From an uncultured virus (IMG/VR IMGVR_UViG_3300023117_001979) (lineage: Duplodnaviria > Heunggongvirae > Uroviricota > Caudoviricetes): a stretch of DNA of 64,000 nucleotides. How positions within the stretch are numbered: the first letter of the stretch is position 1; each line of letters begins with the position of its first letter. The stretch is from IMG/VR virus record IMGVR_UViG_3300023117_001979. One strand, written 5' to 3'. The notes beneath the pieces are model-generated. The model worked only from the letters and a program-made list of their open reading frames with translations. It was not told where the DNA came from and ran no database searches. The translations under genes were made by a program, and so were the position numbers. Positions 31,967 through 50,712 of the stretch are shown piece by piece.

Positions 31967-31975
31967 GGTGTTACT

Positions 31976-32359
31976 ATGTCAAACAGGAATAGTACCATCG
32001 ACGAGCAAATAGAAAAGAGGCTCGGTATCTCTATCAAAACTTGGGATAGAATAGAGCTAACTTCTTTGGGGCTTCTTGTCCTTATCACTCTTCGTGAAAC
32101 TATGGATGTTGTAGGTACAAATGGCGTATTTGGCTACGGCAAAAGCAAAAGGCTTCAACGCTACTCTCGCCTAGGATTTGAAAGAGATACATGGAGTAAC
32201 ATCAATGTAATTAGCACTCTTTTGGGTGCTGGCCTTCTTTTCAAGGGAGCAATCGACGCAGTCGAAACAAAGACAACCTTGCTACGACAGGCTACTAAGC
32301 CACGAACCACCTTCAAAGGGGCAAACATTCAAGGGTTCAACCGTAACAGGATTATTTGA
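31976..32359 (+). CDS. Small membrane protein
   Basis: GAGGTG RBS; two hydrophobic segments. Confidence 0.6.
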   Translation: MSNRNSTIDEQIEKRLGISIKTWDRIELTSLGLLVLITLRETMDVVGTNGVFGYGKSKRLQRYSRLGFERDTWSNINVISTLLGAGLLFKGAIDAVETKTTLLRQATKPRTTFKGANIQGFNRNRII

Positions 32360-32850: not shown

Positions 32851-35812
32851 AATGACCTTTGAACGAGCAGCAACACCTTTTGGGCAAGGTCGCTCTCGTG
32901 AAGCTATTGATTTTGGCCGCAGGGCCACTCAAAAATTACTCCCATGGATTAGAGAACACTATGAACTTTATACATCAGACCAAGCTAATTTTACTCCAGG
33001 TGGTCTTTTCAACTACCATCTAAGAGGAGATTACGCGCTTCAATTGACTACCAATAACCCCGATTATGAGCCTACGGGTCTTTATTCAGCGAACCCCGGA
33101 AGGCTAGTTTTAGAAGCATCACCAGTCCAAGTAGTGTTTAATTTCCCCGCATCAATCGACTTAGCTAACCGGCTACAAACTTTTGCAAATACCCATGCTT
33201 TTGGCGGTGGTGGGCTTGTCGATAGAAGGTTCGGCGTAATGGGTGCATCTGATACCGTAGCAGCCCCTCAACCTGAGCATTTTTTTGCCCGTGAAGTAGC
33301 AAATGGTTCTATTTTAACCGAGTTTTTATTTGCCGAGCAAGCAACTTTAGCATATCGACTATTACCTTACGAAAAGGACTTCCACACTAAAGTTAGAAAT
33401 TTTTTGGTAAATGAATCAATGCATTTTATCGAGAATATTCGCCTACTTACCAACGGCAGGGGGAATAACCAATTCGAGCATATTGCTCATGGCTTTAACT
33501 TAGATTTGGCACTTCTTGGGCCAGAGCTAGATAGGTTATTTGTAGCCGCTCCTAACACTTTAGGAACAATCAACATGCCAGGAGGTATTCCTAACATTAA
33601 CTTTGCAGCTCCACCACTTAATGCATTTGCTACTTGGACCGACCTTTGGGCAGACCCTACTACACCGAAACCAACATTCGTACTTCCAATTTGCTATGTC
33701 ATAGATGCTACCACAGAATACATTAATCTAAACGCTGCTGTTGCTAAAGGGGTCCACCCTGATACTGACGCTGTTCTTTGGCCGGTTTATCAAGACCTAC
33801 TTAGAGAAGCTATTATCGCTTCTTACCAAATTGGTGGCTACTATACAATAAACCCAGGAGCACCTGGACCAGCACCTGGAGCAGTAAATCCATCACACTT
33901 AGTACTAGATAACACAAATCACTTTACCGCATACTATCGTCAGCAGCATGGCGGTGCTTATTTTCTATGTAGCCAAAAAGCTGATAATTTCAATCCCAAT
34001 AATGTGCGAAATAGGCTTGGCAACTTCTTTGACACTTACTTTAACTTGGTTAATACTCCATTTCCGGTTGGTACCATTGTTCAGTTTAATATCCACAACA
34101 ATAACGCAGTAAACGAAGCCAATACTAATCAAGTTACTCCGCCTATCCCAAGAGCTAATTTAGTGGCACATATAACTGGGCCTAACAACAACTTGTTTAG
34201 GATTACAGGGACGAACCCACCAATACGACAGCGCAATCGCCCCAATATTCGCAGGTATCAAATGGAGTCCGTCGACGATACTGGCGCTACTAGAGGACTA
34301 GAGTTACAGAATATTCGCGAGTTTTGGAGAACAGACCAGGGGGAGATTCCATCCATTTTCATGCATCGCCCAGCTAACTTTGGTGTTAATGACCAGTCTA
34401 TTCACACCCCATTAAACCTCGTTGGTCGAACTTTGCTTAGTAGCTGTTATTATATTTTCAATATAGGCGCATACTACTCAGCTAGAAGAGATATGAGGAA
34501 ATTGACCAAAAGAGATGCTCCTGGCCACTATCCTCCTTTGAATGAAGCTATGCAAGCTGGGGTTGCTAATAACGCCGCGCGAAATGGTCACCAGCCAAAT
34601 CACGAGTTTGGTGTACTAGACTTGTATTCAGAATTACGCGCTGACCTGATGGCAGATTACCTAGCAGCTATGTATGACAACCTGAAAGGAAGTTATCGCG
34701 ACCAATTCGAAGCTTTCTATACAGGAGACTTCCACTCTAATGAGTTGGATTATTACACATCAGCGGTTTCTAATTACATTGACCCTCAAGTTATGCCTGA
34801 AGATGCTAATAGAGAGCAAGTACTAGTTGGACCAAGGTTGACTACTAGGCTCCCCCAGGAAACCACCTTAGTCGAGAGACAAAGAGCAGTCTATCCAGCT
34901 AACCACCCTGATGTGTTGGCCGGACTAGCAACAGCGGGAGACCCACTACCTGTTCAATCCCACAGGCAGGTTCAAAACTTCCGTAGCGCTGACCCTGAGT
35001 TAGTTTATTATCAAATGGATAGCCCACTGCTAAGGGAAATTCTCCGCGAGTTGAACGAGGCATTTTACCAATGGTATGTTACGCTAGCCGAAGACTTAGA
35101 CCGAGGTGCGCGAAATCTTCTTCGCGCAGGTAATTTAGAAGCAGACGACCCCACGCAACGAGCTTTACTAGTTCGTACTGGAAGAAGGGGAGACCCTGGC
35201 ACTGACCGCCGACCGATTAGGCCTACTAAACTAATTTTAGATTCTATGTGGCCTCTTCTTACAACACGGGCAACTAACGCAGTTGAGTCGGGTGAAGTAC
35301 CAGCTCATAACATGCTAAGGCGAATAGCAGTAGCACTAACCCAACATAGGACTCAAACCTCAATGGCAATACCAGCAGTGCCTATTTCTTTATCATCAGT
35401 TAATTTTGGGGAGCTACTTCGCTCACCCACTCAATACGCCCTCCCACCTAGTACTTCTGCTGAGGATGTTAAAGTGTTCTTAGACTATCTATCAAACACT
35501 TATTACAACGATTACGGTTTAATTGGCTTGCTAGCAGCTAATATTGAAACAGAGCGAACCGAGCTATATACCCAAGACCAACTTATTGCTGCATTCAAAA
35601 AGCAATACAAGTCATTCCGCGATACTCTTGTCTTAAATCGCTTCCACTTTTCTGCAACTGCCGAAGTTATCCTAGCCTTTAGGCGTATGATTGCTACTGA
35701 CCCTAATGCAAGAGCAATCGAAGCAGCCACACTAACTACATCACCTCCTGGAGACCCAGTGGAGCAGGCTGCCCCAGCTACCCCGATTCCTGAACCAATG
35801 AGGAGGATTTGA
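32837..35812 (+). CDS. Large hypothetical protein
   Basis: 991-aa ORF in the same operon, rich in Asn/Pro/Ala; no family recognised. Confidence 0.7.
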   Translation: MRVHKMTFERAATPFGQGRSREAIDFGRRATQKLLPWIREHYELYTSDQANFTPGGLFNYHLRGDYALQLTTNNPDYEPTGLYSANPGRLVLEASPVQVVFNFPASIDLANRLQTFANTHAFGGGGLVDRRFGVMGASDTVAAPQPEHFFAREVANGSILTEFLFAEQATLAYRLLPYEKDFHTKVRNFLVNESMHFIENIRLLTNGRGNNQFEHIAHGFNLDLALLGPELDRLFVAAPNTLGTINMPGGIPNINFAAPPLNAFATWTDLWADPTTPKPTFVLPICYVIDATTEYINLNAAVAKGVHPDTDAVLWPVYQDLLREAIIASYQIGGYYTINPGAPGPAPGAVNPSHLVLDNTNHFTAYYRQQHGGAYFLCSQKADNFNPNNVRNRLGNFFDTYFNLVNTPFPVGTIVQFNIHNNNAVNEANTNQVTPPIPRANLVAHITGPNNNLFRITGTNPPIRQRNRPNIRRYQMESVDDTGATRGLELQNIREFWRTDQGEIPSIFMHRPANFGVNDQSIHTPLNLVGRTLLSSCYYIFNIGAYYSARRDMRKLTKRDAPGHYPPLNEAMQAGVANNAARNGHQPNHEFGVLDLYSELRADLMADYLAAMYDNLKGSYRDQFEAFYTGDFHSNELDYYTSAVSNYIDPQVMPEDANREQVLVGPRLTTRLPQETTLVERQRAVYPANHPDVLAGLATAGDPLPVQSHRQVQNFRSADPELVYYQMDSPLLREILRELNEAFYQWYVTLAEDLDRGARNLLRAGNLEADDPTQRALLVRTGRRGDPGTDRRPIRPTKLILDSMWPLLTTRATNAVESGEVPAHNMLRRIAVALTQHRTQTSMAIPAVPISLSSVNFGELLRSPTQYALPPSTSAEDVKVFLDYLSNTYYNDYGLIGLLAANIETERTELYTQDQLIAAFKKQYKSFRDTLVLNRFHFSATAEVILAFRRMIATDPNARAIEAATLTTSPPGDPVEQAAPATPIPEPMRRI

Positions 35813-35813
35813 T

Positions 35814-38800
35814 ATGGAGTTAGGCCCTCTTTTGGAAGAGTTCGAGCGTTATGCCAAAAACTCGTATATTGCTAACATTAAGTTGGGTGTACCCGATATT
35901 AAGGAGTTTCTTTTGCAATTCTTTACTCGTCGTACCTTTTTCATTAATGGAATAATGTATTACGGGGCTTCAAGCAAGCTAGATGGAGAACCACGATTTG
36001 TATTTACAGAACCCGACTATACTACTGATGATTACATAGAAGCAGTCTTACCCGAATTAATTCAGCTTTACACCAACGCTTACGGGGCTCCTAGCGATAC
36101 TCCATTCTCTAAAGAGTGGTCGCCCAAACCATTCAAAGCCGAAACTGAGCGTGAAAAGCAACAGGCCGCTATTATGAAAGAGCGCATCATGGAGTACAAC
36201 CAGCGAACCTTACCTTTTCGCCTAAGTAAAACAATGTACCACCCTATTTCGACTGTTTGGTTTAGTAGCTCTTCAGGGACAGTCGGTACGAAAGGAAAGG
36301 TTGGTGAAGTAACTATTACTTCGCAAGAAGAAATTGAAGAATTTATTGACTCCACCTCGTTTTACAGTTTAGTGGGTGGAAAAGATGCCTCACTAAGAGA
36401 CCTATGGTTTGAAGCTCTCAATGATGAAAAGAGCAACCCTAAGTTTGGTTGGTTTGATATTGACAACCCCGCAGACCTAAGTGAAAAGGAGCACAAAGAA
36501 GTAGTTTCTAAGATTAGCAAAATGCTAAGCGAAGCTGACCGCAAGCATATTATCATGTTTACTGGGCGTAATTACCAAATTTGGTTTGCCCCTAAGAAAG
36601 GCGAGCGTTTTGATTACGCTATGGATGTAAAGACCATAGTTGAAGGGTATGGTGCAAAGGCAGGTGCCCTTGTAGGAAACGGCACTGCTTATCGAAATAA
36701 AGCAGTAGCAAATGGCAAAATTTGGGTGGACACCGGCGTTTACAAGAAAAATCAAAAACTTGGTTTCTTTTTCGGTATGCACTTTAAACCAGGCCGCCTT
36801 GAGGACTCAACTGGCTTAGTACGAGTTCCAGTAAAGCGAAGCGAGCTAAGTGCATTTGACCCCTTAGTGGACGCTCACCCTGAAAATGTATTACTTCGCT
36901 TTGACGAATTGAAGGCTCGTGTTGATATGTTTTGTCAAGAAGTGGAGCTAGGCGAAGGCTTCCCATACAAAGACAGGGGCTACCCCTGCTATCGTTCTGC
37001 ACGAGGCAATAATGATACTAAGAACCCACTAGCAAAGCGTCTAGAAGAATGGAAGAAACCAAAAATGAAAGAATTTTCAAAAAGTGTTGCGGGTGAAGAA
37101 GTCTTACAGCACGAGTCTATTACAGTCATGCCTAAGCTAGATGGCTGGCTCGGAGGTATGGCCTTCAACATTTCAGGTGGCTTCAAAGTAAACGGGCAAG
37201 ACCTAGACGGTTTGCAAGAAATTGAAGGCATGATTCAGTCTATTCAAACAGAAAAGCAAAGAGCCCTAATGTGTACTAAAGGTGGAATCTTTAGTTGGGA
37301 CAGCTACCTAACACATGCATTTGAAAACGCATGCCGTAGTATTGGAGTAACCGAGGCTATTGTAACAGGTGAAATTGTCACTTACAATGACCTAGGCAAA
37401 GTAGCGGGAAGGGAAGGGGTTGCTAGTGTCCTAAACCGCCAAGAAGCAGAACCGGTAAATAAAGTCTCGACACATGATACTCACGATTTCCGCAAACTGA
37501 AGTTTGTAATTCATGATGTTCTCTCGCTAGATGGTAGTGATGTAAGTCGAGATATTCCAATTGCACAGCGACTAGCACTATTTTCCGAAGTAAGTAATGA
37601 CCGCATTTCTGTAATTCCACACGAGGTAGTAACTGAAGACCTTTTTACTAACTTTGAAGCACTATGGAAAAAACATGTCCAAGAAGAACAAAATGAAGGC
37701 TTAGTTGTATACGGTGGAGGAAAGAGGTACAAAATTAAGCGTCGTTATACCCTTGACGCAGCCATTATTGGGATTGATACTGATGCGAAGCACTGGCAAG
37801 ACCAAAAAGAAATGCTATCAACAGTAATCGTCGCAGTTTCAAAGAATACGGGAAAGGGCCCGACATTTTTTGCCTTTCAGCGAATTGGTAATTTCCGACT
37901 GCCTGACGAAGTGCGCAAAGATTTGTTTCACAAGGTTTTAGGAGACCGTAAGAACGAAGAGTGGAGTAGGAACAGTTTTGCTAATGTTTTACCATACGAA
38001 AATAAGCAAAACCCAAACATTTACTGGGTGGACCCAAAAGTAGTAGTTGAAATTGAATATGAATCGCTTGGTAACGAAACCAAGCCAGCATTCATGTTTT
38101 ACCGAGAACAGGTGCAAAAAAGCACAGCAGACTCACGAAGTCTAGAAAGAGGCTACCGTCTATCACCTATTGTAAAACCAGCCGCTAGTCGTAGGCTAAA
38201 AGGACCACCAGTTATCTTATCTGAAAGAATGGATAAGAGTACTTTCAACCCAGTTGACATTTCTCATGAGCAAGCTGAAGGTGCTGGGGGTTTGCAAATT
38301 TCGTCAAAAGTGACGAAAATAGCTTCAGAAGAATTGGAGAACCCGTCAAAGATTAAAGTGACACATGTCAGAACGAATCCTATGTATGGTTACGCTCGTG
38401 GCCCCCGGTGGATTGCAGGCGGAGGAATGTCCGAATCTTCTCCTACCGAAGCATTCCGACTAGGTACGCATAAGGGCCCAGGCCATATTTCCTTCGATGA
38501 TGTAAAGCTAACAATGGAACAAGAATTTATCGAACCACTACGAGATGTTCCAGGAGCCACTACACGAGGAAAATCAGGGTGGCAGCCAAACTACAAACCA
38601 ATTTGGGACCAAGCTCGACAGCACCCACAAACAGGAGTTAACTTCTATCCTGAAATGACTGGGATGGCCTTTTCTTCTGCTGACGCTATCTTTGATGAAC
38701 GGGGCCCTAACATTCCTGGTGGGCGCAAGGGAATTATTGAATCACAATCTTCTAAGTATAGTCTTAAACGCCTACTAAGTGATGAGTACCATCATGGTGG

Positions 38801-39332
38801 TGAGCAACTTGAAGAAGATGCTAAGCAATTAGGGAGGGCACTAGGCAAAGAGCTTCTTCACGCTCCTAAAGCTAGTAATGACGCCAGCGACATGCTGTAC
38901 CAATTAGTCGAAAAGGACATTTCAGAAGCTGATAAAATTAAAGAAATCGACTCAAAGATGGGTAGCAAGAATTTTTCATCTTCAAAAGGTTTCAGCAAAT
39001 TAGAAAGAAGCCCAGTGAGGTCAAACCCGGCTTCTTCAAATTCTAGGTGGAATCAGCGCACTAAAGAATACCGCAAAGAATACCAAGAGTGGCTAAAAGA
39101 ACCCGAACCTAAGCAAAGCTGGAAAGCCCATGCTCTCAAAAGGTACGAAGCATGGGAAATTCCACTACTCGAAAAAGGCAGGCAGTTTATGGACGCTGAG
39201 GATAACTTCCTCTATTCCGATTCCGAAGAAGCAATAATACATGGTCGCTTCCCATCACTTGACGGGGAAGACGAAGGCCACATTTTTTCGGTCATTACCT
39301 TAGGAGATGATGATGATGAGTTCGAGAGTTGA
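35814..39332 (+). CDS. AEP (primase-polymerase)-like domain fused to an ATP-dependent DNA ligase (LigD-like architecture), plus NP-delimited C-terminal modules
   Basis: WFDIDNP and MFTGRNYQIW (AEP-like); PKLDG (ligase motif I), VTGEIV (III), FVIHDVL (IIIa), EGLVV (IV), YKIKR (V), OB-fold VDPKVVVEIEYE; LENP, RTNP, RSNP linkers. Confidence 0.8.
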   Translation: MELGPLLEEFERYAKNSYIANIKLGVPDIKEFLLQFFTRRTFFINGIMYYGASSKLDGEPRFVFTEPDYTTDDYIEAVLPELIQLYTNAYGAPSDTPFSKEWSPKPFKAETEREKQQAAIMKERIMEYNQRTLPFRLSKTMYHPISTVWFSSSSGTVGTKGKVGEVTITSQEEIEEFIDSTSFYSLVGGKDASLRDLWFEALNDEKSNPKFGWFDIDNPADLSEKEHKEVVSKISKMLSEADRKHIIMFTGRNYQIWFAPKKGERFDYAMDVKTIVEGYGAKAGALVGNGTAYRNKAVANGKIWVDTGVYKKNQKLGFFFGMHFKPGRLEDSTGLVRVPVKRSELSAFDPLVDAHPENVLLRFDELKARVDMFCQEVELGEGFPYKDRGYPCYRSARGNNDTKNPLAKRLEEWKKPKMKEFSKSVAGEEVLQHESITVMPKLDGWLGGMAFNISGGFKVNGQDLDGLQEIEGMIQSIQTEKQRALMCTKGGIFSWDSYLTHAFENACRSIGVTEAIVTGEIVTYNDLGKVAGREGVASVLNRQEAEPVNKVSTHDTHDFRKLKFVIHDVLSLDGSDVSRDIPIAQRLALFSEVSNDRISVIPHEVVTEDLFTNFEALWKKHVQEEQNEGLVVYGGGKRYKIKRRYTLDAAIIGIDTDAKHWQDQKEMLSTVIVAVSKNTGKGPTFFAFQRIGNFRLPDEVRKDLFHKVLGDRKNEEWSRNSFANVLPYENKQNPNIYWVDPKVVVEIEYESLGNETKPAFMFYREQVQKSTADSRSLERGYRLSPIVKPAASRRLKGPPVILSERMDKSTFNPVDISHEQAEGAGGLQISSKVTKIASEELENPSKIKVTHVRTNPMYGYARGPRWIAGGGMSESSPTEAFRLGTHKGPGHISFDDVKLTMEQEFIEPLRDVPGATTRGKSGWQPNYKPIWDQARQHPQTGVNFYPEMTGMAFSSADAIFDERGPNIPGGRKGIIESQSSKYSLKRLLSDEYHHGGEQLEEDAKQLGRALGKELLHAPKASNDASDMLYQLVEKDISEADKIKEIDSKMGSKNFSSSKGFSKLERSPVRSNPASSNSRWNQRTKEYRKEYQEWLKEPEPKQSWKAHALKRYEAWEIPLLEKGRQFMDAEDNFLYSDSEEAIIHGRFPSLDGEDEGHIFSVITLGDDDDEFES

Positions 39333-42300
39333 AATTATTCTCGACAACACACCATTTCCAGGTGCAGGTCAACAAATTGGCGGCTACGAGGTAATAGAGT
39401 CAATGCTTGACATAGATGGTAAAAACTGGGCAGTGTACTTGAAAGGTAAGTTAAACCAAGCCCAAGCTAAATTGGCCTTGAAAGACCTCACAAACAAGCA
39501 CCATGTACTCCCAGTACAGGATGAATTTAGTTTGGTTTCTTTCAAGTCCAAAGGAATGCTGCATGCCCGCACTAATCCGCCTGGGGATGTTACAGTAGTT
39601 AGAGGACATATGTACTATGCCCGCCCTAATCCAATTACTACTTCAGACTTTCATAATGAAATGAATGAAATGCTAATAGATAACCCTGAGAAGCACTTCA
39701 CAAGGTATACGGTAAAGACTACTGAGCAACTTCACGACCGCTTGTGGAAAGGAGTAAGCTATGCCGGTGAATCCTATGGGTGGAAAAGGGGTGACGACCT
39801 TTGGCACCGTCGCGCCTCTTTCATTATGCCTAAAATTAAAATTAACAAAGCACTGGAAGGTGCTACGATGTTTTACCATACACACCCAGCAAAAGACGAG
39901 CCAAGTTTGACTTCTGCTGACGATATTCAGTTTTACTTAGACTTGCACTTTGCTTGGGGGATAAAGAGCTTTTACACTATTATGAAGCATAAGCTCGACC
40001 ACTTTACTATAACTAGTAAAGCAGGTGGGAAAGAAAAATACCTCCGAATGGAGGAAGAGGCATTCATAGATACTGTTGATGGTATGATTGAAGAAGGAGA
40101 AAAAGTGGCCAAAAAGGAGGTGGGGAACGATAGGCCTGAGATTGAATTTCAAAACAGAATTACCAAAGAAATGGTTGACCTGTTCAATAAGAAGTTCAAA
40201 TCAATTGCAAAGATTTCCTTTCGTCCCAAGGCCAAGAACCCAGCCAGCAAACTTGCTCGAAAACCTTCCAACAACCCCATCGCCGCACTCGTTAACCCAG
40301 CACCAAATCCACCAATCAAAGTCGACGATAGGTTCGTGGCAAAGGCTCTAGATGAGCTAAAGGGACTAGACTATGCTCATGAGCATTACGGGGCTGATGA
40401 ATATGGTCATACAATGTATGTGTACTGGTGGCTTAAGCATCATCTAGCTCCTACTACTCAATTTCCTAAAGGGCGCCTTTGGAAACTAAATGAATACGGT
40501 ATGGATAGTGACACGCGCAAAAAGTTGAGAGCCTACCTATCGCAACCAGTACTTGGTAATTACAACTACATGGATATTGTTTACCTGTTAGCTCTTTACC
40601 ACGACATAGCTAAGCTCCGAGAAAAAGGAGTCAAAGAAACTGGCTGGGAAATAGGAGCAGAAATGTTCCGTAATGAGATTGGCCCTGAAATTGGTCTGCC
40701 CTCTAAGCTAACTGAAGATATTGCATTTTTACTTGACACTGATGTAGGGCGTAAAGGAATCACTGACAAAGACTTCTTGACTCAAGCAGGGGACTACTAC
40801 GGCGCTAGTAAGCTACTCCATATGGCTGACATGATTACCCACCACCCAACTATGTACAAAGGTGGAGATAGCATGAAGCAAGAGCTGATGGTAAATTTCA
40901 TTGACCAGCTAAGAGATTTCCTTGACCACCACTATGTTATTCCCAACCCACCTCCACAAGTGGCTACGCTAAAGTGGGTGGCCGATTACGGAATTAGTGA
41001 CCTTTATTATGAAGAAGTTGACGAGTTACTAGGCGTGTTCCACCAAAGCGTAGTACCTGATAATGACGGTAAAACAAAAAGCGCAGAAGACCGAAGCTCA
41101 GGCGGTCACCTTTACCGCCTGCGGTTTAATTCATCACTAGTACCAGGACTTACACGCTATTATGCTGGTAATCTTGCATTAAGCTCAAGCAAGCTAGTAA
41201 TAGATGTAGGCGCCCCTGTTCCTGATGACTTAGGAAAGGCAGATGCTAACTTGATTTACCGAGCAGTAGGAGAGCGATTGAAAGAATCATACCCCGAATT
41301 AGTAATTGAAGAAGTCGAACCGGAGTCACTAGTAAACCCCCGACACGCAAATAAAATTCAAGTGATTTCTATTAGTGGCCCTTCAGGTGGTGGAAAGAGT
41401 ACAGTACTTCGCTACTTGAATAAACACATTCCTGATTCAAGCACCCCACCTACTTTCACTACTCGCCCCAAGCGCCCAACAGATGGTGCTGACCGAAGGT
41501 TTGTTTCAAAGACTACTTTCAAGAAGATGATAGAACAAGGGCAGTTTGTTGAATATACCGTAAGTGGCGCTGGACACTACTATGGTAGGAGGTTCAAAGA
41601 CTTCTATGGCAAGGTTGCTATCATCGAAGTTTCTCTAGACGGCAAGAAGCACTACGAAAGTCGTTTTGCAAATGTGTTTAGTGTATATCTAGACCCTGAC
41701 CCATCTATTACAGAAGAGGAACGAGCAAAGGCAATTTACAAGCGCGGAGGACTAACTAAAGAAGAAGCTAAGCGTCGTGCAAAGATAGCAACAGAAACAG
41801 TTGAGCGTTCTAAGAAAATGCAATTCGATTTGCGCGTTACAATGATGAAAGGTAAGTATGAAGATGGCGCTAAGAAGGTTCTATCAGAAATACCACTAGT
41901 CAATCCAGCATCTACATTCATGCTTTTAGAAGAGCCATTCCGACCAGCACAACTAGACTTAGATGGGAACCTTTTACCATTGACCCCACTTCAGTTAAAC
42001 CGAAACGCACAAATTCGAACATACAATACACGACAGCAAGACGCCTATAATGCAGGCACCCATATTCCTTGGACAATGGCACATAGAAGTGATTTTCCAG
42101 TGAACGCTATTTTACCCCCAGCATGGTTTCACGACTTAGTGAAAGGAGTAAAGTATGGATTAGTGCCTGCTAACATAGTTAATACAGTTGCCCCCATTGA
42201 ATCATGGGGTAATCCTTCAAAGAAAGAGCTATTCGATTGGTTCGAAGACTGGGTTAAACTAGTCAACATGAAGAACAAGGAACTCAAAACTTTCCTTGAC

Positions 42301-45285
42301 TCAGACTGGGGCAAAGTAGCAGGGCTTTCACCTCAAGAAGCAAAGGACTGGAACAACATCAAGAGTGGCAGAGTCAGTGGTCGTCGCATTCTCAAAATGC
42401 GTAAAAAATTAGGCCTAACTGGCCCAAAGGACTACATTGACCCTAACAAACCTAGAATCCTAGAAGACTACTATGAGAAAGCACTCAACAACTGGACTGG
42501 TCCAAGTGACGATATGCAGAAGGGTGAAACTGACTGGGACTGGTGTAAGCGTCAAGTACGATTCAACAAGCGCTTCATGGGTGATGTATTCGGTGAACGC
42601 AAAGGGCCACTTGTCAGAAAACAAAAGACACAAAATCAACCTTCCCGTCGTTTGCTTTCTCTTTGGGTTTGGGGCCACGACCCCTGGCGCTACGCACGAA
42701 AGGTCGAGAAGCGCGAGCGAATGCCTAAGTGTCCTAGTGTACCTTGGGTAGGAATGACCGAGAAGCGCAAGTGGGGAGTAATCGAAGTCATTCCTGGGCC
42801 TAAGAACAAACCAAAGAAGAACCCAGCATGGCCCGAAGAGTGGCAGAGTAATCCGTATGTGACCCTCATTGAGCCCTGGACAGGCATGGAGGTCATGATT
42901 GATGAAGAGATAGCTCCACTTATTCAGGCGATGTGGGGCAAAGATATTCAGACCATTAACAGCAATCAAGCGACAAGTAGTTGGGGCTACATTGCCGTTA
43001 AAGGTAGCTTTGACAAAATTAAAGCTGTGGTACCTGAAATGGAGCTTCATCAACCAGCCATGCAAGTAGAAGTTGACCACGGAGTTCAGACAGCATTGAC
43101 AGAGAAAGCAAAAAATGACTTTAGGAGCAAAGGCTACATCGCTTTGGTCAATGTAAAGAAAGGAGCCTTCTCAGAACATCCAATTATGGGGCCCATGTGG
43201 GACACTGACTATCTCATACTCTTCACAAAGGAAGGACAAAATGCACTTCACACTGCTTTCGGTATTCCACTACCTAACCCTATGGTACGAGTCAAGAAAG
43301 ACGAGTATCGCTCTTACTTCATGGATGAAGAAGGAAATGATTTGACTTCTATTCCATTTGAAAGCGTCAGCTTCACCGCAGGCCAAAATGTAGCTAACTT
43401 TGGAGAACCCATGACAAGGAAAGAGGCATTAACTGAGCGGGAGGGAACCTGGTGGAGAGTGAATGTTTCCGCATACAAAGGCCGAAAACCAATTATTGAA
43501 GTGGCTCCAATTAAGCATTTTACAAGCCCTGGAGAATATAATAGGTTCGTGACCAGGGGGCGTACCTTTTACAAAAATTTCTCTATGGAGGGACCAGTGT
43601 TCCCTACAATGCTTACTCACATGGCACAAGAGCCATCAGCTATCTTGATAGTACAAGGGGACTTGAAGAGTTTTGGCGAAGAAGAATTAAGGTCTGACAT
43701 TACTGATTGGAAAGGAGTCAGTAAAGGTGAAGGCAAGCTTCCTGTTTACGAAAGCGGCGAAATAGTCGCAGTGGATTCTGAGCAACTGATGGTTACTTTC
43801 ACTCCTGTTAAAAACGAGCTAAGGGTAGAGGCACACATCGTAAATCACACCAAGAATGTTAGTGAACAAGTCTCTGTGCTAAGGTTGGAAGATAGGGGAG
43901 ACCATTACTGGCTTCACGAAATTCAGGTTTCGCCAGAACACCGAGGACAAAATTGGTTTAGGTGGGGGGTAGAAACAATGTTGTTCAACTTGGTCGACCG
44001 AATCCCTGACTACCCTAACAAAAAGCCTGTCCGTACACTAGCACGAGTAGTCGAAGGTATTCCACAAAAAGAGCTAGTTAGAGTCCTTGAAGAAACTGGG
44101 TTCAAGAAGATAGAAGAAGTTGATGGCGGGGTTTTGATGGAATTCGATTACCACTTATTCGAAGAGGTCTTTGCTAACCCATCCCACACTCCTTCTCGCT
44201 CTAATCCACCAACGCCCCATGACGGGGACGCTATCATCACAGTAAATGAAGTACCCTGGGGCACACAAATAATTGCAGAATGTCCATTTGATGGAACAAA
44301 GTGGGCAGTGGACTCATCAATGGAAGATGCTTGTAACCATATTTACCCTGAATGTGGCCATGTTCTAAGAATCAATCCTGACAAGCCATGTTGCTGTGAA
44401 AACTCAGAACATCCACCAACACACCCCGACCACTGGCCCAATACTCGTGATAACCCCCCCATCATTCCGATTCACCATGCCTACCATGCTACCCCAACGC
44501 GTAATGTGCCATCAATCATGAAAGAGGGGCTCCGTTTGTCTCACTATGAAAGAACAAAAATCGAGCCCGCCGTGTATCTGACCTATACCGAAACGCAGGG
44601 GCGAAAGATGGCAAAATGGAGGGAAGAGAAGAGCGGGGAAGAGCACACTGTTCTCAAAATCGACCTCGCCACCTTCACGAATGAGGATGTTGGTGCGGAG
44701 CCTTGGGAGTATGATTCTTTCCCGGTGTTAGACCAACGAATGAAGGAAAACATCACAAACACAAACCAACTGATGATAACCCGACCTATCCCCCCTGAGT
44801 TTATCGAGGTCTTGGAGAGAGTAAACCCTCGTACAAAGAAGGGTCGTAAGTTTCCTAGTAAGTACCTCAAAGGTCTAACCGCTACGGAGAAAGCTATTGC
44901 CAAATACGAAATAGACAAAGGCTACGAATACAGCATGGATGACCCTGAAGCATACAAGTTTTGGAAGTCTGACATTAAAGCAAAGGCGAGGGGCATGGAA
45001 ATTCTCCCCTCTAAGTGGCGAAACAAGTTTGCTCGCAAGTATGGACCTCTCAAAGACGGCTATGACTTCCTAGACAGAATGAGTAAAACAACGGGCATTA
45101 AGAGAAAATACCTGAAGAAAATCCAAGACAAGGGCCTAGCAGCATGGAGAATTGGACACCGACCTGGAGTAACTCAAATGCAGTGGGCTAGAGGAAGAGT
45201 GTATGCATTCGTAATGGCGGCACCTTCATCAACAGCTCCAGGTAAGCCTGACCATAAACTGGCAGTGGAAGCAGGGGTGAGATGA
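39307..45285 (+). CDS. Giant NP-delimited polyvalent protein: JAB, HD-like, guanylate kinase, DUF3140-like, GNAT-like, ADP-ribosyltransferase-like and DUF5824-like domains
   Basis: FYHTHP..SADD; LYHDIAK..HMAD; ISGPSGGGKS..TTRPKR..YYG; LVNMKNKEL..SGRRI..WGHDP; IQVSPEHRGQ; AYHATP..SIMKEGL..VYLT..IPPEFI; GLAAWRIGHRPGVTQMQWARGRV. Confidence 0.85.
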   Translation: MMMMSSRVEIILDNTPFPGAGQQIGGYEVIESMLDIDGKNWAVYLKGKLNQAQAKLALKDLTNKHHVLPVQDEFSLVSFKSKGMLHARTNPPGDVTVVRGHMYYARPNPITTSDFHNEMNEMLIDNPEKHFTRYTVKTTEQLHDRLWKGVSYAGESYGWKRGDDLWHRRASFIMPKIKINKALEGATMFYHTHPAKDEPSLTSADDIQFYLDLHFAWGIKSFYTIMKHKLDHFTITSKAGGKEKYLRMEEEAFIDTVDGMIEEGEKVAKKEVGNDRPEIEFQNRITKEMVDLFNKKFKSIAKISFRPKAKNPASKLARKPSNNPIAALVNPAPNPPIKVDDRFVAKALDELKGLDYAHEHYGADEYGHTMYVYWWLKHHLAPTTQFPKGRLWKLNEYGMDSDTRKKLRAYLSQPVLGNYNYMDIVYLLALYHDIAKLREKGVKETGWEIGAEMFRNEIGPEIGLPSKLTEDIAFLLDTDVGRKGITDKDFLTQAGDYYGASKLLHMADMITHHPTMYKGGDSMKQELMVNFIDQLRDFLDHHYVIPNPPPQVATLKWVADYGISDLYYEEVDELLGVFHQSVVPDNDGKTKSAEDRSSGGHLYRLRFNSSLVPGLTRYYAGNLALSSSKLVIDVGAPVPDDLGKADANLIYRAVGERLKESYPELVIEEVEPESLVNPRHANKIQVISISGPSGGGKSTVLRYLNKHIPDSSTPPTFTTRPKRPTDGADRRFVSKTTFKKMIEQGQFVEYTVSGAGHYYGRRFKDFYGKVAIIEVSLDGKKHYESRFANVFSVYLDPDPSITEEERAKAIYKRGGLTKEEAKRRAKIATETVERSKKMQFDLRVTMMKGKYEDGAKKVLSEIPLVNPASTFMLLEEPFRPAQLDLDGNLLPLTPLQLNRNAQIRTYNTRQQDAYNAGTHIPWTMAHRSDFPVNAILPPAWFHDLVKGVKYGLVPANIVNTVAPIESWGNPSKKELFDWFEDWVKLVNMKNKELKTFLDSDWGKVAGLSPQEAKDWNNIKSGRVSGRRILKMRKKLGLTGPKDYIDPNKPRILEDYYEKALNNWTGPSDDMQKGETDWDWCKRQVRFNKRFMGDVFGERKGPLVRKQKTQNQPSRRLLSLWVWGHDPWRYARKVEKRERMPKCPSVPWVGMTEKRKWGVIEVIPGPKNKPKKNPAWPEEWQSNPYVTLIEPWTGMEVMIDEEIAPLIQAMWGKDIQTINSNQATSSWGYIAVKGSFDKIKAVVPEMELHQPAMQVEVDHGVQTALTEKAKNDFRSKGYIALVNVKKGAFSEHPIMGPMWDTDYLILFTKEGQNALHTAFGIPLPNPMVRVKKDEYRSYFMDEEGNDLTSIPFESVSFTAGQNVANFGEPMTRKEALTEREGTWWRVNVSAYKGRKPIIEVAPIKHFTSPGEYNRFVTRGRTFYKNFSMEGPVFPTMLTHMAQEPSAILIVQGDLKSFGEEELRSDITDWKGVSKGEGKLPVYESGEIVAVDSEQLMVTFTPVKNELRVEAHIVNHTKNVSEQVSVLRLEDRGDHYWLHEIQVSPEHRGQNWFRWGVETMLFNLVDRIPDYPNKKPVRTLARVVEGIPQKELVRVLEETGFKKIEEVDGGVLMEFDYHLFEEVFANPSHTPSRSNPPTPHDGDAIITVNEVPWGTQIIAECPFDGTKWAVDSSMEDACNHIYPECGHVLRINPDKPCCCENSEHPPTHPDHWPNTRDNPPIIPIHHAYHATPTRNVPSIMKEGLRLSHYERTKIEPAVYLTYTETQGRKMAKWREEKSGEEHTVLKIDLATFTNEDVGAEPWEYDSFPVLDQRMKENITNTNQLMITRPIPPEFIEVLERVNPRTKKGRKFPSKYLKGLTATEKAIAKYEIDKGYEYSMDDPEAYKFWKSDIKAKARGMEILPSKWRNKFARKYGPLKDGYDFLDRMSKTTGIKRKYLKKIQDKGLAAWRIGHRPGVTQMQWARGRVYAFVMAAPSSTAPGKPDHKLAVEAGVR

Positions 45286-45767
45286 TGGAAGCACGAGAGT
45301 ACCCAAGCTATACCGTAATAGGTGTTAGTGGAAATATTGCTATTGCTACCTTATCCCATAACGAATGGGTTGAATTTGTAAACGGCCAGCTAAATGCCGA
45401 AAACCGAGAATGGTATTCAACGCCTACAATGCGCCAAGTGCATAATTTTACTGGGAGAGGTTATTTTCCAAGAGGGATTACGCTCGGTGATGAAAGTGGC
45501 GCTTTAATTGTAATAGATGGCACCTATGCTAATGATGAGCGTCTTCTTGCTCATGAGTACGGTCATGCTCTTGGACTTGGTCATACTTCTTATCCTACTA
45601 CAATGAACCCAGTTAGTCACATGAGACTGTTTGATTCAGAAGGCCTCATTCCTAAATTTAGGCAAGCATTCCCTGAACTAGCACAGGCAGTAAGAGAAAG
45701 GAAACCAATACAAATTCCCACTGCACTGCTCACAGGTGCCTTTTTGTTTTTCTTTCTCAAGGGCTAA
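45282..45767 (+). CDS. Zincin (metzincin-like) metalloprotease with C-terminal membrane anchor
   Basis: AHEYGHALGLGH (HExxHxxGxxH) and Met-turn-like TMNP; hydrophobic tail. Confidence 0.85.
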   Translation: MMEAREYPSYTVIGVSGNIAIATLSHNEWVEFVNGQLNAENREWYSTPTMRQVHNFTGRGYFPRGITLGDESGALIVIDGTYANDERLLAHEYGHALGLGHTSYPTTMNPVSHMRLFDSEGLIPKFRQAFPELAQAVRERKPIQIPTALLTGAFLFFFLKG

Positions 45768-45797: not shown

Positions 45798-46526
45798 ATG
45801 GTAGCTAAGCGGTTGCTCGATAATATCAGTCGGCGCCATACAGCAATCGTTGGACAAACTCGTTCAGGTAAGACATATGCTACTAGGTTCATTCTAAAGA
45901 AACTCCAAGCTCAAGGAATACATACTATCTTCTTTGACCCTAAGCACGATGACGATTATGCTGACTTAGGGGTAATCTGCTACACCCCTATGCAAGTATA
46001 TGCAAAGCTGCTTTCTAAAACATCTGCAATTGTTTACCGACCAAACCCGGAAAAGAACAAGAGGTTTGAAGAACTGACACGCGTCATTAACTTGACATTT
46101 GAAGTCTCAAAAACAAGGGGCTACCAAAGAATAAAGAGAGTCTTTGCTATTGACGAAGTACAATTAATGGTAAAGAAAGGTGGAAACGATGGAATTGAAA
46201 GGCTATGGACAGTAGGAGCAGGTCAAGGAATCTTAGGGCTAGCGATTACTCAGCGTATTCAGTTACTAAACGAAACAATTTGGTCTCAGTCAGAAAACAA
46301 GATTCTCTTCAAAGTCGAAGACCGACCTGAATACCTTCGTTCACGCAATCTTGACCATTATGCGGAGTTACTTCCCTTTTTCCAGGCTCCTGAAAATAGG
46401 TACTGGTTTTACGCCACCGTAGGTGACGGCGTTTGGAAAAAGCACCCTCCTGTTGGGGAAAAGGAAGAAAATACCGACAGAAAGAATAACCTAAGGCGGC
46501 TACGCTTATCACGATGGCAGTCTTAA
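45798..46526 (+). CDS. FtsK/HerA-superfamily ATPase, probable A32/P9-like genome-packaging ATPase
   Basis: IVGQTRSGKT Walker A, IFFDPK, FAIDEVQ Walker B, ITQR; 242 aa, the size of packaging ATPases of tailless icosahedral viruses. Confidence 0.8.
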   Translation: MVAKRLLDNISRRHTAIVGQTRSGKTYATRFILKKLQAQGIHTIFFDPKHDDDYADLGVICYTPMQVYAKLLSKTSAIVYRPNPEKNKRFEELTRVINLTFEVSKTRGYQRIKRVFAIDEVQLMVKKGGNDGIERLWTVGAGQGILGLAITQRIQLLNETIWSQSENKILFKVEDRPEYLRSRNLDHYAELLPFFQAPENRYWFYATVGDGVWKKHPPVGEKEENTDRKNNLRRLRLSRWQS

Positions 46527-47140
46527 TTACCATCCCGCATGGTTCCACCCCCAATGGTGATGGAGAACATAATAGCGACATAGGAGCATTAGAATTCCTT
46601 TCTTACTTAGAAGAAGCACTAAATGATATAGACATTCCTTTTACCACTCTTATAGGAAAAACAAACCGAGATATTCTAGACCTCAACAGACTTCGCGCCC
46701 ATTCACATCCATGGGTAAAAGAAGTAAGGAAAGAAATGTTAAAGGCAGAAATTCACATAGATTTGCATTCATTTCCATTTTATGAAGAGCCAACTAAAAC
46801 TAGTACAGGCTATTCACTAGATGTATGGGGGCGATTTGATGTTGTATTGTTTAATACACCTGAGATTACAGACCAAGTGTTCCTAAAGACTATTGAAGCT
46901 GAACTAGAAGAAATGAGTATAAGGACAGGAGAAGAGCAGGGTGGCTTTGAGAATTACATTAGCAATATGGCTACTGTACTATTTGACCTTCCTTCATTAG
47001 TAATAGAAATTAACGAGGCGGCTGGCCAAAATTATCCCCAGGTGGCCTCGTCCCTGGCGGTGGGAATATTGAACCACCTTGAGTACCTTTCCGAGCCGCT
47101 TCCTCTAGACGACGAGCCTCTTCCTGTTGAATACGCATAA
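46514..47140 (+). CDS. Zn-dependent hydrolase, N-formylglutamate amidohydrolase/M14 carboxypeptidase-like
   Basis: LITIPHG, DLNR, HIDLHSF, LVIEIN motifs. Confidence 0.65.
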   Translation: MAVLITIPHGSTPNGDGEHNSDIGALEFLSYLEEALNDIDIPFTTLIGKTNRDILDLNRLRAHSHPWVKEVRKEMLKAEIHIDLHSFPFYEEPTKTSTGYSLDVWGRFDVVLFNTPEITDQVFLKTIEAELEEMSIRTGEEQGGFENYISNMATVLFDLPSLVIEINEAAGQNYPQVASSLAVGILNHLEYLSEPLPLDDEPLPVEYA

Positions 47141-47309: not shown

Positions 47310-47444
47310 TAGTAAGGGGCATTATGTCTATGGTTATGATACTTGGGATAGTAAAGTAAAGTATCTATCTATGTGATTCTATCATATACTATCACAGGGG
47401 CCTTTATACCCTAGTGCTCGATGCCCCTAACACAGGTGGCGGAA

Positions 47445-48467
47445 ATGGCTCTCCAAGAATTGGTGATTGTCAATCCTAAAAGGAAAAGTCGTCGAGCCGC
47501 CACAACCAAAAGAAAAAAGGTGAATACAATGGCTCGTCGAAGAACAACCCGAAGAAAAACTGCCCCAAAGCGTCGCGCAACCACTCGTCGACGCACGACC
47601 ACAAAGCGCCGCGCTGCGCCAAAGCGCCGTCGTACTACTCGTCGCAAGACGACTACTCGACGCCGCGCTGCACCAAAGCGCCGTCGTACTACTCGTCGCA
47701 AGACGACTCGACGCCGTGCTGCACCAAAGCGTCGCCGCACGACCCGTCGCAAGTCAACGACCCGTCGTCGTCGTAGCCCAGCTCGTCGCCGCAAGACGAC
47801 CCGCCGTCGTCGTCGTAGCCCAGCTCGCCGCAAGACGACCCGCCGTCGCCGCCGCAGCCCAGCTCGCCGCAAGACGACCCGTCGCCGTCGCCGCAGCCCA
47901 GCTCGTCGCCGCACGACCCGTCGCCGCACGACCCGTCGTCGTTCCACCACTCGCTCTCGTAAGATGAGCATGAAAGGAATGTACAACTTCATCATGAACA
48001 ACATGACTGCTTTCGAGGCTATCGCTGCTCTCGGTGTCGGTCTTGTTGCTGGTCTCAAGCTCCCTGCTCTTGCTGAGAAAGCTGTTGCTAAAGTCATGGG
48101 TCGTACCATCACTCTTACTGAGGGATGGAAAGGACCTCTTGTCGGTGCTGCCCTCGCTGGTGCTCTTGGCTACTCGCTCTATGGAATGAAGCTTGTCAAC
48201 TTCAATGTCGCGTCCACCATCGCTCTTGCTGGTGCAACCGTCGGTATGTTGAACCTTGCTAACACTTACCTTAACCTCCCACTTCCAGGTGTGGCTCTTA
48301 TGAACCCATCCGGTAGTGCTGGTTTCGGCTTCTTGGCTGGCTCTAACACGCTTCACGACAATGTCAGTGCTTTCGGCTACCTTGGCGAAGCCCCATTCGA
48401 ACCTTTCGGTATGACTGATGGCTCCCACGGTTACCATGACATGGGCCGCGTCGTCAATGTTTTCTGA
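47445..48467 (+). CDS. Protamine-like Arg-rich core protein with C-terminal membrane domain
   Basis: TTTATA box at 47403 and AGGTGG RBS favour ATG 47445; about 150 aa of R/K/T/S/A/P repeats, then hydrophobic helices. Confidence 0.8.
   Translation: MALQELVIVNPKRKSRRAATTKRKKVNTMARRRTTRRKTAPKRRATTRRRTTTKRRAAPKRRRTTRRKTTTRRRAAPKRRRTTRRKTTRRRAAPKRRRTTRRKSTTRRRRSPARRRKTTRRRRRSPARRKTTRRRRRSPARRKTTRRRRRSPARRRTTRRRTTRRRSTTRSRKMSMKGMYNFIMNNMTAFEAIAALGVGLVAGLKLPALAEKAVAKVMGRTITLTEGWKGPLVGAALAGALGYSLYGMKLVNFNVASTIALAGATVGMLNLANTYLNLPLPGVALMNPSGSAGFGFLAGSNTLHDNVSAFGYLGEAPFEPFGMTDGSHGYHDMGRVVNVF
47530..47960 (+). repeat. Coding tandem repeats (RRRAAPKRRRTTRRK x3; RRRRRSPARR(R)K/TT x4)
   Basis: Imperfect tandem nucleotide repeats built from CGT/CGC codons. 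Confidence 0.85.
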
Positions 48468-50449: not shown

Positions 50450-50650
50450 TTGACTGATGGTCTTTATCACATAGTGATAGGTGACACCGTCAGCGACCTT
50501 ATTCTCAAAGTCAACCATATGATGGAAAGTGGCTGGGTCCCGCAAGGTGGTGTTTACAAAGAGCAAGGTAGGCACATACCTCTCACCGCTATTGTATGGT
50601 ATCAAGCCATGATTCGACCACTAATAACAAATCAAGCCCTTGTAGTGTAG
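50450..50650 (+). CDS. DUF1737-like small protein
   Basis: Likely TTG start at 50450; LKVNHMMESGWVPQGG...YQAM pattern; 3' end overlaps the tRNA. Confidence 0.55.
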   Translation: MTDGLYHIVIGDTVSDLILKVNHMMESGWVPQGGVYKEQGRHIPLTAIVWYQAMIRPLITNQALVV

Positions 50651-50712
50651 CTTGGATAACACTCTGGCCTGCGGAGCCGGTACCCCAGGTTCAAATCCTG
50701 GCAGGGGCGCCA
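50636..50712 (+). tRNA. tRNA-Arg (anticodon GCG), with encoded CCA
   Basis: Acceptor GCCCTTG/CAGGGGC, D arm GTGT/ACAC, anticodon arm CTGGC-CTGCGGA-GCCGG, T arm CCAGG-TTCAAAT-CCTGG, ends GCCA. Confidence 0.92.

Follow-up and report, generated by a model that had tools for sequence, protein, structure and literature searches.

A giant modular protein punctuated by Asn-Pro pairs in an uncultured virus with archaeal-type genes

The giant gene and its punctuation

The stretch of DNA considered here (the window) comprises 64,000 nucleotides of the uncultured virus IMGVR_UViG_3300023117_001979. Its plus strand carries a giant open reading frame (ORF) at 39307..45285, which starts with ATG and encodes a protein of 1992 amino acids (aa), exactly the coordinates and length given in a preliminary description of this DNA. 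It shares 26 nt with the 1172-aa ORF upstream and 4 nt with the 161-aa ORF downstream. Its product is very probably a modular cassette protein. At least 12 units bounded by Asn-Pro pairs follow one another along the chain, five of them with assigned folds (guanylate kinase, HD, GNAT, JAB and DUF5824; Table 1). The fixed N-terminal core consists of the N1 module, a JAB/JAMM-like hydrolase, an HD phosphohydrolase, the module U1 and a guanylate-kinase-like kinase. Two conserved basic modules, one DUF3140-like and the other DUF5824, accompany it, and the variable run is represented here by U2, the 'IDEEIAPLI' module, a two-part GNAT unit, a Cys/His unit and a unit resembling ADP-ribosyltransferases (ART-like). 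Relatives swap in other cassettes; the accessory repertoire comprises more than 100 module families, and their order varies. All ten module borders of the preliminary description coincide with Asn-Pro-bounded units that behave as independent homology blocks; two further units, aa 867-969 and aa 1325-1480 (the latter joined to the GNAT-like part), were absent from its list.

Table 1. Units of the giant protein and the two genes that follow it, in window coordinates
Feature	Position (aa of the giant protein)	Strand	Basis or remark
N1 module, alpha/beta domain	39307..39630 (aa 1-108)	+	ends at invariant Asn108-Pro109
JAB/JAMM-like metallo-hydrolase module (predicted)	39631..40239 (aa 109-311; fold core aa 137-309)	+	model and motif
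Asn-Pro-rich flexible linker	40240..40308 (aa 312-334; Asn-Pro at 311, 323, 330, 334)	+	
HD phosphohydrolase module	40309..40947 (aa 335-547)	+	Pfam HD in orthologous positions of relatives
Core module U1	40948..41337 (aa 548-677)	+	Asn-Pro-bounded, in 91/121 family proteins
Guanylate-kinase-like nucleoside monophosphate kinase module	41338..41904 (aa 678-866)	+	Pfam PF00625 and P-loop
Accessory module U2	41905..42213 (aa 867-969)	+	9/121 family proteins; 10 BLAST subjects
DUF3140-like basic core module	42214..42822 (aa 970-1172)	+	sub-threshold Pfam
Accessory module 'IDEEIAPLI'	42823..43278 (aa 1173-1324)	+	19 BLAST subjects
Accessory 300-aa unit: N-part (aa 1325-1480) and GNAT acetyltransferase-like part (aa 1481-1624)	43279..44178	+	
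Cys/His-rich accessory module	44206..44454 (aa 1634-1716)	+	18 BLAST subjects
ART-like accessory module, resembling the Tpt1/KptA NAD-binding lobe; not established	44455..44826 (aa 1717-1840)	+	
DUF5824 basic helical module and stop codon	44827..45285 (aa 1841-1992)	+	Pfam
161-aa metzincin-like protease with C-terminal hydrophobic anchor; candidate processing enzyme	45282..45767	+	
242-aa HerA/FtsK-type ATPase, putative genome-packaging ATPase	45798..46526	+	Pfam DUF87 E 4.8e-8; phrog_2666 E 1.1e-16

The giant ORF is one intact gene and not an assembly chimera, given its identical copies elsewhere, the contigs of other sequencing runs and the large homologues described below. An identical protein (P0002) comes from another collection, and a metagenome contig of 135,676 bp matches the window product with 100% identity over the 517 residues queried. 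The stretch, or at least half of its sampled words, is present in 20 of 24 listed runs, all of them salt-marsh metagenomes. The preliminary description had named a chimera revealed by read mapping as a finding that would overturn it; contigs from four of four other runs compared instead align to the ORF at 95% identity or more, with neither joints nor indels. Identity reaches at least 99% in 53 of these 58 contigs, and a single contig of 5291 bp from another run covers 42358-45285. Bins that lack contig cover in a single run (39707-39906 in X13; 42907-43306 in X19) prove nothing. A chimeric assembly, or separate genes fused through sequencing errors, is thus effectively refuted already. It could have accounted for the relatives found as short fragments on long contigs, but these lose their similarity in the middle of modules, as happens with frameshifts, and the same 6-kb frame stays open in at least 133 homologues.

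These homologues were collected at E≤0.001 in a search limited to proteins of 1095-3486 aa. Family proteins reach about 3000 aa, the largest contigs that carry them measure about 143 kb, and relatives also occur at seven IMG/VR loci. For the counts given below, the family set is 121 proteins, namely the query and 120 listed homologues. When the query was compared with the latter by BLAST, aa 26-850 were covered in 111-117 of the 120, aa 976-1150 in 109-110 and aa 1851-1992 in 87-90, while aa 1176-1825 were covered in just 4-34. For aa 1175-1840, phmmer returned 26 matches among 1.84 billion representatives. The 38 shorter proteins with a match to the N-terminal 680 aa share 38-92% identity with the query; those inspected are fragments of the same family, and no distant stand-alone form of this part was found among them.

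Split at Asn-Pro, the 121 proteins yield 1449 units with a median length of 150 aa, which fall into 118 clusters. Seven clusters form the core, each present in 88-118 proteins; the rest are accessory, and 55 of them occur in fewer than three proteins. The accessory cassettes named by Pfam in 21 homologues include glutaredoxin, DUF7831, GNAT, SET, NUDIX, DUF5754, Ham1, PAP2 and NDK, and the domain sets differ among these homologues. The order varies as well, in agreement with the comparison across relatives that the preliminary description had recommended as a check. DUF5824 precedes the DUF3140-like module in L002, L003/L004, L005 and L007 and follows it in the window and in L006, so that the two are inverted in five of six loci (the rows of L003 and L004 are identical), and the Cys/His unit directly abuts the DUF3140-like unit in L001, L008 and L013. 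Contigs of a co-occurring relative in run X16 diverge from the window at 44188, 44452/44456 and 42806, all of which are module borders. Modules are gained, lost and reordered exactly at Asn-Pro points.

The giant protein contains 19 Asn-Pro pairs where 5.8 are expected, and the maximum reached in 2000 shuffles was 14. Every one of the 121 family proteins is enriched (1888 pairs against 573, a ratio of 3.3 that never falls below 2.2), while the ratio for the other 47 ORFs of the window is 1.38. A milder enrichment is seen in the upstream ORFs of 728 aa (7 against 2.4), 1172 aa (8 against 2.3) and 1587 aa (8 against 3.7). In the family of the 1172-aa protein the punctuation is weaker, with only two Asn-Pro sites kept in 5-6 of six sequences.

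The pairs at the joints of the core are kept in 98% of the 121 aligned sequences at position 108, 95% at 547, 98% at 677, 90% at 866 and 81% at 969, although the sequences go down to about 30% identity and the flanking columns vary. Within the linker, Asn-Pro 330 is kept in 72% and Asn-Pro 334 in 80%. Ser, Thr and Asp do not substitute for the joint Asn, and the only other conserved feature of the joints is position -2, which is hydrophobic or basic. Of the 41 Pfam domains recognised in 18 homologues, none contains an internal Asn-Pro (random mean 19.4, maximum 29), and 38 have one no more than 50 aa away on each side (random mean 3.9, maximum 11). In structure model 1, an AlphaFold model of aa 1-335 built from 44 sequences with a predicted local distance difference test (pLDDT) score of 82.7, Asn-Pro 108 and the cluster of pairs at 311-334 lie in stretches with pLDDT below 50. 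The preliminary description had proposed a split at NP motifs; this does separate real units, but it was not recognised there that the pairs are the most conserved feature of the family. Their codons vary synonymously, with six different codon pairs in use, which indicates selection on the protein and not on the DNA. A role of Asn-Pro as a recombination signal at the DNA level was rejected on account of the six codon pairs and the variable flanks. In practice, the Asn-Pro rule offers a way to cut the family proteins into domains for annotation and expression.

Modules of the chain

The N1 model has pLDDT values mostly of 81-96, which drop below 50 at residues 107-109. Its fold matches are weak (Z 5-6.5) and include Listeria antigen B, ribosomal protein S6 and many phage neck, tail-terminator and tail-completion proteins.

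The next module is read as a JAB/JAMM-like metallo-hydrolase. All structural matches on residues 137-309 are JAMM/MPN proteins (24 of 50 VIA-align rows in a wide search, 41 of 50 in a second look), among them Pyrococcus furiosus JAMM1, Rpn11, BRCC36, CSN5, AMSH, Cap3 and RadC. The best is P. furiosus JAMM1 (5lda_A), with Z 7.0 and a root-mean-square deviation (rmsd) of 3.6 over 105 aligned residues. Residues E155, H191, H193, S200, S203 and D206 are invariant in 44 sequences (E..HxH..S..D). In the classical JAMM motif, HxH and S are seven residues apart; the spacing here is nine. Because the matches are confined to JAMM/MPN proteins and E155, H191, H193, S203 and D206 are invariant, a predicted JAMM/MPN fold is accepted for aa 137-309 despite the modest Z scores. 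At the level of sequence, hhalign against archaeal Prok-JAB aligned only the HxHP motif (P 0.0093 and 0.0077), and a sequence-profile search of the PDB gave no significant match for the module, the best being a nucleoside deaminase at E 0.056. A Foldseek search of BFVD with model 1 returned 20 matches at E≤0.001, five of them named 'Minor capsid protein' (E 1.6e-6 to 8.5e-4); this likeness to phage proteins is a lead from a predicted fold and a language model only. The JAB-like module is followed by a linker whose residues 312-335 have pLDDT below 50.

The HD assignment comes mainly from relatives. Pfam HD (PF01966) exceeds its cut-off at the equivalent place in four of 21 homologues (P0046, P0059, P0081 and P0099), while the segment of the giant protein itself reaches E 0.0089 and 16.7 bits against a cut-off of 22, and the match to NCBIfam HDIG has E 0.017. 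All seven sequences compared keep the H, HD, D and HH residues. The PDB profile search found no match for this module, and Pfam and NCBIfam scans found no family match for U1, U2 or the 'IDEEIAPLI' module.

In the kinase module, Guanylate_kin (PF00625) matches aa 687-842 at E 3.4e-12 with 46.9 bits (cut-off 25.2), the PHROG guanylate kinase profile matches at E 5.2e-20, and the P-loop reads GPSGGGKST. NCBIfam TIGR03263 matches at E 1.4e-21, but its 76.9 bits lie under the equivalog cut-off of 160; judged by these profiles, the module belongs to the guanylate kinase family and is not necessarily a true guanylate kinase. The N-terminal core as a whole matched nothing in named phages. Among relatives with identities of only 33-87%, the JAB, HD and kinase modules keep their catalytic residues without exception, which points to selection for enzyme activity.

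Among the accessory modules, the 300-aa unit has no Asn-Pro between its two parts, which co-occur in 20 proteins. No direct Pfam match was obtained for the GNAT-like segment. A profile of 22 such modules, however, aligned in hhalign with a profile of six Pfam-verified GNAT modules from relatives at 96.7% probability (E 3.4e-10, 93 columns), against P 0.087-0.36 for three unrelated control profiles, and BLAST linked the part to P0022 and P0033 at E 1.5e-4 and 3.5e-4. In the PDB profile search, seven of 14 matches at E≤10 have the acetyltransferase (GNAT) fold, the best at E 0.061; for one of the seven the fold is presumed. These comparisons confirm, at the level of sequence profiles, that the GNAT-like part is homologous to verified GNAT domains.

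The BLAST subjects of the Cys/His module are 46-95% identical to it and lie at differing positions in their proteins. Structure model 2 (aa 1634-1992) has a pLDDT of 46.8, with low confidence at the Cys/His module and values below 50 at the ART-like module. The Cys/His, 'IDEEIAPLI' and U units are real conserved units without an assigned fold.

The Tpt1/KptA-type name of the ART-like module goes back to one short motif that is detected in four libraries, always below threshold: the NCBIfam RNA 2'-phosphotransferase (E 0.005), Pfam DUF7002 (E 0.0019) and PTS_2-RNA (E 0.1), in the PDB profile search three top matches that are all Tpt1, at E 0.48 over 21 residues, and archaeal Tpt1, with which the hhalign comparison was not significant (P 0.017, 54 columns). 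The module has only six BLAST subjects. Tpt1/KptA is a two-lobe enzyme in which an N-terminal RNA-binding lobe precedes a C-terminal NAD-binding ART lobe. Only the C-lobe region is matched by the unit, which at 124 aa is too short to hold an N-lobe. Tpt1/KptA is encoded by 40 of 41 sampled genomes of the archaeal class (that of G005) holding the metagenome-assembled genome (MAG) mentioned in the next section, so that a Tpt1-like ART module in the virus would double a function of the host or compete with it.

The DUF3140-like module is the best conserved part of the giant protein, being 75% identical in L006, against 37% for the N-terminal core. Its Pfam match (PF11338) reaches 18.4-22.8 bits against a cut-off of 25 (E 1.2e-4 at 22.8 bits), covers profile positions 1-49 of 92 and spans just the first 50 or so residues of the module. 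Five relatives (P0125 and four of the 21 homologues) show the same sub-threshold match, at 19.3-21.5 bits, and the module had no match in named phages. DUF5824 (PF19141) is matched at aa 1850-1974 with E 2.8e-19 and 70 bits (cut-off 25), and its model is all-helical with pLDDT 60-90. Of the folds named in the preliminary description, guanylate kinase, DUF5824, HD, GNAT and JAB have thus held up, while the DUF3140-like and the Tpt1/KptA-type ART-like names are backed by sub-threshold matches only. As a separate observation, the last three helices of DUF5824 (about 70 residues, 287-359 of model 2) weakly resemble region 2 of sigma factors (Z 5.6, rmsd 2.5, 54 aligned residues). At least 14 of 50 structural-match rows for this end are sigma factors, at Z scores below the level at which the tool is to be trusted for helical models, and the likeness is a lead only.

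Neighbouring genes and the source virus

Several large ORFs stand in a row that ends with the giant gene, those upstream of it spanning 25017-39332. The 728-aa ORF has a HAD/PNKP-type phosphatase domain and the 1172-aa ORF an ATP-dependent DNA ligase domain. The order of the 728-aa ORF, 1172-aa ORF, giant gene, metzincin-like ORF, ATPase and a 208-aa ORF is kept in all five distant loci. The metzincin-like ORF carries the motif HEYGHALGLGH followed by MNP, and its match to Pfam Peptidase_M10 (E 7.2e-5, 23.1 bits) lies just under the 24-bit cut-off. In five of five related loci, HExxHxxGxxH, MNP and the hydrophobic tail are kept, and the gene always comes directly after the giant gene.

The HerA/FtsK ATPase likewise accompanies the giant gene in all five distant relatives, in line with the earlier remark that the gene lies next to the packaging ATPase. 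Its matches among 50,697 phage records are restricted to eight, from the four haloarchaeal sphaerolipoviruses SH1, HHIV-2, HCIV-1 and PH1, the best at E 7e-5 with 25.7% identity over 66% of the query. The matched genes are annotated 'ORF 17', 'putative ATPase' and 'terminase large subunit'. In the window, the ATPase is followed by ORFs of 208 aa (46514-47140) and 348 aa (47421-48467). This order resembles the arrangement in the sphaerolipovirus group, in which an ATPase is followed by the small and then the large capsid protein. The SH1 capsid proteins had no match in the window. Neither Terminase_6N nor Phage_capsid of Pfam was found in four related records, a negative of little weight since these are only 47-79% complete, and general Pfam and PHROG scans of the window, run with no portal- or terminase-directed model, revealed neither a portal nor a terminase.

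Sphaerolipoviruses also encode a giant protein, VP1, a few ORFs from an ATPase of the same type (1777 aa in HHIV-2, 1608 aa in HCIV-1 and, as ORF13, 1390 aa in SH1), and HHIV-2 annotates it as 'virion protein 1; structural gene'. The giant protein might by analogy be chiefly a structural virion protein, a counterpart of VP1 whose core and basic modules build or anchor part of the particle and whose enzyme cassettes are minor passengers. The position of the gene and the type of ATPase, shared with VP1 of HHIV-2 and HCIV-1, speak for this idea, as do the neck- and tail-terminator-like matches of N1 and the resemblance of the JAB-like domain to 'Minor capsid protein' phage proteins. We nevertheless regard it as improbable. 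VP1 has no detectable sequence similarity to the giant protein, the structural likenesses are weak, the label 'Minor capsid protein' was assigned automatically, and the invariant catalytic residues of the JAB, HD and kinase modules argue for selection on enzyme activity.

The archaeal-virus setting proposed in the preliminary description agrees with the gene content of the window, which includes an archaeo-eukaryotic primase, a Rad52-like protein, MCM, RusA and a group II chaperonin, and with the binning of a relative's contig in an archaeal MAG. The chaperonin (62623-63999), of thermosome type, matches an ancestral group II chaperonin at E 5.5e-104. An 88% identical chaperonin lies on a 9.7-kb contig syntenic with 55.9-64 kb of the window, in a MAG designated 'Methanobacteriota archaeon' (L018-L023); apparently a contig of viral origin was binned together with a possible host. 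The source virus, about 136 kb in size, combines replication genes of archaeal type with a predicted packaging ATPase of sphaerolipovirus type, and it may be a very large relative of the sphaerolipoviruses. The genomes of that family measure about 30 kb according to the available part of the profile by the International Committee on Taxonomy of Viruses (PMC12643093). If the ATPase link holds, the size range of the group would be greatly extended, from about 30 kb to about 136 kb.

Several other genes of the window deserve mention. A 203-aa ORF (51356-51967) without a family match shows 77-81% identity in five of five distant relatives, against about 20-64% for their other proteins, and no other product of the block is as well conserved. 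A gene for tRNA-Arg (anticodon GCG) lies at 50636-50712 among small, late-type ORFs. The 604-aa ORF at 60465-62279 ends in a Peptidase_G2/intramolecular-chaperone autocleavage domain (E 1.1e-30) of the kind seen in phage spikes and pre-neck appendages, and is probably a receptor-binding spike.

Processing, delivery and comparison with known systems

The evidence leans towards a multi-enzyme cassette protein of polyvalent type with functional Asn-Pro joints. Under this reading, the chain would reshape the nucleotide pool of the host and modify host or viral macromolecules. The chain would be processed at the joints and in this way divided into its units; a punctuation that survives every reshuffle is predicted by a cleavage signal and not by a passive linker. 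Candidates for the cutting agent are the downstream metzincin-like protease, the JAMM-like module and an Asn-driven self-cleavage. Once released, the kinase and HD units, and in relatives NDK, Ham1 and NUDIX, would act on the nucleotide pool; the GNAT and ART-like units, and in relatives SET, would modify macromolecules. Presumably made together with the morphogenetic gene products, the giant protein may enter the virion, as sphaerolipovirus VP1 does. Processing at the joints is put forward tentatively, at somewhat below even chances, and packaging or delivery with the virion is slightly more doubtful still, being suggested by the position of the gene together with the weak N-terminal structural likeness to phage virion proteins.

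Several observations weigh against this reading. Cleavage, virion packaging and the enzyme activities are all deduced from sequences and models. Neither JAMM nor metzincin enzymes are known to cut Asn|Pro, and the characterised JAMM enzymes cut after the Gly-Gly of ubiquitin-like tails. Cutting at all Asn-Pro sites would yield two peptides of 18 residues. The pairs at 90 and 126 lie in well-folded parts of model 1 (pLDDT blocks of 88-91), so that not every Asn-Pro is an exposed linker. The verified enzymes belong mainly to nucleotide metabolism, and phages normally make such enzymes in the cell instead of injecting them. The JAB fold matches do not exceed Z 7.0, and the tool describes values below 8 as possibly a common arrangement; Foldseek found no match of model 1 to the PDB at E≤0.001; and the ART and DUF3140 names are both sub-threshold. 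As for VP1, besides its lack of similarity to the giant protein, SH1 ORF13 shows no Asn-Pro enrichment (2 pairs against 1.6). RNA libraries make up six of the 24 runs listed for the stretch, and presence in them is no proof that the giant gene is transcribed.

An alternative is an uncleaved multi-enzyme scaffold. The whole chain would then act as a covalent cytoplasmic factory of nucleotide metabolism, made up of a kinase, phosphohydrolases and pool-sanitising enzymes, and Asn-Pro would serve as rigid, protease-resistant hinge or capping motifs that prevent misfolding between modules. The verified modules are indeed mostly nucleotide enzymes (guanylate kinase and HD; in relatives also NDK, Ham1, NUDIX and glutaredoxin), no protease specific for Asn|Pro was recognised, two of the pairs are situated in folded regions, and the group II chaperonin of the window could assist the folding of a giant chain. 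Plain linkers, however, are normally the least conserved parts of a protein, yet Asn and Pro are kept at 90-98% between variable flanks, with no stand-in of Ser, Thr or Asp for Asn. That more than 100 cassette families are freely exchanged and reordered speaks against a fixed assembly line, and the SET, GNAT and ART-like cassettes are not nucleotide-pool enzymes. A scaffold of this kind is considered unlikely, though it keeps a substantial share of the probability.

A more far-reaching form of the processing hypothesis is that of 'programmable' polyproteins in this lineage of large archaeal viruses, in which a constant core would be joined to exchangeable cassettes from more than 100 families, each set free at Asn|Pro, following translation or within the particle, by a membrane-anchored metzincin or by Asn-driven self-cleavage. 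It is offered as a speculation with perhaps one chance in three. If true, it would be a polyprotein strategy so far unknown in double-stranded DNA viruses of prokaryotes, and a punctuation of two residues would let recombination swap effectors without disturbing their processing. In any case, the invariant punctuation provides a simple and directly testable prediction of how the giant chain is processed.

The closest known plan is that of the polyvalent proteins described by Iyer et al. 2017 (PMC5512222), for which the following refers to the accessible part of that paper. These proteins occur in phages with a terminase-portal system and in conjugative elements, combine 2-15 domains, typically including an MPTase, MuF, a methylase and a helicase, and are scarce in archaea, nearly all those above 1000 aa being bacterial. 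A metallopeptidase is predicted there to cut the chains into working units. As in the giant protein, many unrelated domains share one chain, the architecture varies among orthologues, and the gene lies by virion or packaging genes; JAB-clade, GNAT and NUDIX domains occur in both families, and polyvalent proteins also have ART-type domains, of which the sub-threshold ART-like module is a candidate counterpart. Unlike in the terminase-portal carriers of polyvalent proteins, the ATPase is of HerA/FtsK type, and unlike in those proteins, nucleotide-pool enzymes prevail in the domain content of the giant-protein family. The same part of the paper makes no mention of Asn-Pro punctuation.

In the giant protein itself, Pfam, PHROGs and NCBIfam detected no MPTase, MuF/portal anchor, methylase, SNF2 helicase or ArdC-N, and no HExxH occurs. 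The giant protein works, in its domain organisation, like a polyvalent protein, but its virus is no recognisable portal-terminase carrier and the hallmark domains were not found by sequence. What is new here is the Asn-Pro punctuation together with the very large cassette repertoire, while the polyvalent-type plan was already known; the literature searches made found no paper on the giant-protein family or its punctuation. An abundant marine and estuarine virus lineage with archaeal-type genes thus appears to use the polyvalent idea at scale (at least 133 clusters and more than 100 cassette families), with an enzyme repertoire that differs from the one outlined in the consulted part of PMC5512222.

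Viral polyproteins offer a second comparison. As in these, a short motif marks the joints of the giant protein, with Asn-Pro kept at 81-98% at the five core joints. The structural polyproteins pp220 and pp62 of African swine fever virus are cut at Gly-Gly-X. Polyproteins of this type share with the giant gene a long ORF, a short conserved motif per joint and a protease gene in the same genome. They represent, however, a fixed structural set, whereas the giant protein consists of enzyme modules shuffled between strains, its motif is Asn-Pro and its cleavage is only presumed.

Cleavage between Asn and Pro is known from the autocleavage of FlhB/YscU at NPTH and from reovirus mu1 at Asn42-Pro43. 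In these proteins and in the substrates of Pro-Pro endopeptidases, Asn-Pro is at or next to the scissile bond, which is cut by Asn cyclisation or by a metalloprotease. The known Asn|Pro sites lie in a defined fold or a longer motif, whereas the giant protein has a bare Asn-Pro with a preference at position -2, and it contains no NPTH. Pro-Pro endopeptidases are reported to act on VNPPVP-type sites. The DUF7831 cassettes of relatives were considered as proteases of this kind on the basis of weak ATLF matches, and the candidate was rejected; these cassettes are without HExxH and have no copy in the window.

A much smaller counterpart of the C-terminal arrangement is found in a cultured virus. 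The Pelagibacter phage HTVC008M, a marine myovirus, encodes gp130 (L017 1268-3058, 596 aa), in which a cytidylyltransferase-like domain is followed by a C-terminal DUF5824. Like the giant protein, gp130 thus has DUF5824 as the C-terminal partner of an enzyme domain in a marine virus. It differs in having two domains only, in belonging to a bacterial myovirus and in lacking Asn-Pro punctuation (3 pairs against 1.5 expected, none at the joint). DUF5824 is also found in the Methylophilales phage Melnitz, and these two cultured phages provide a handle for the study of this domain.

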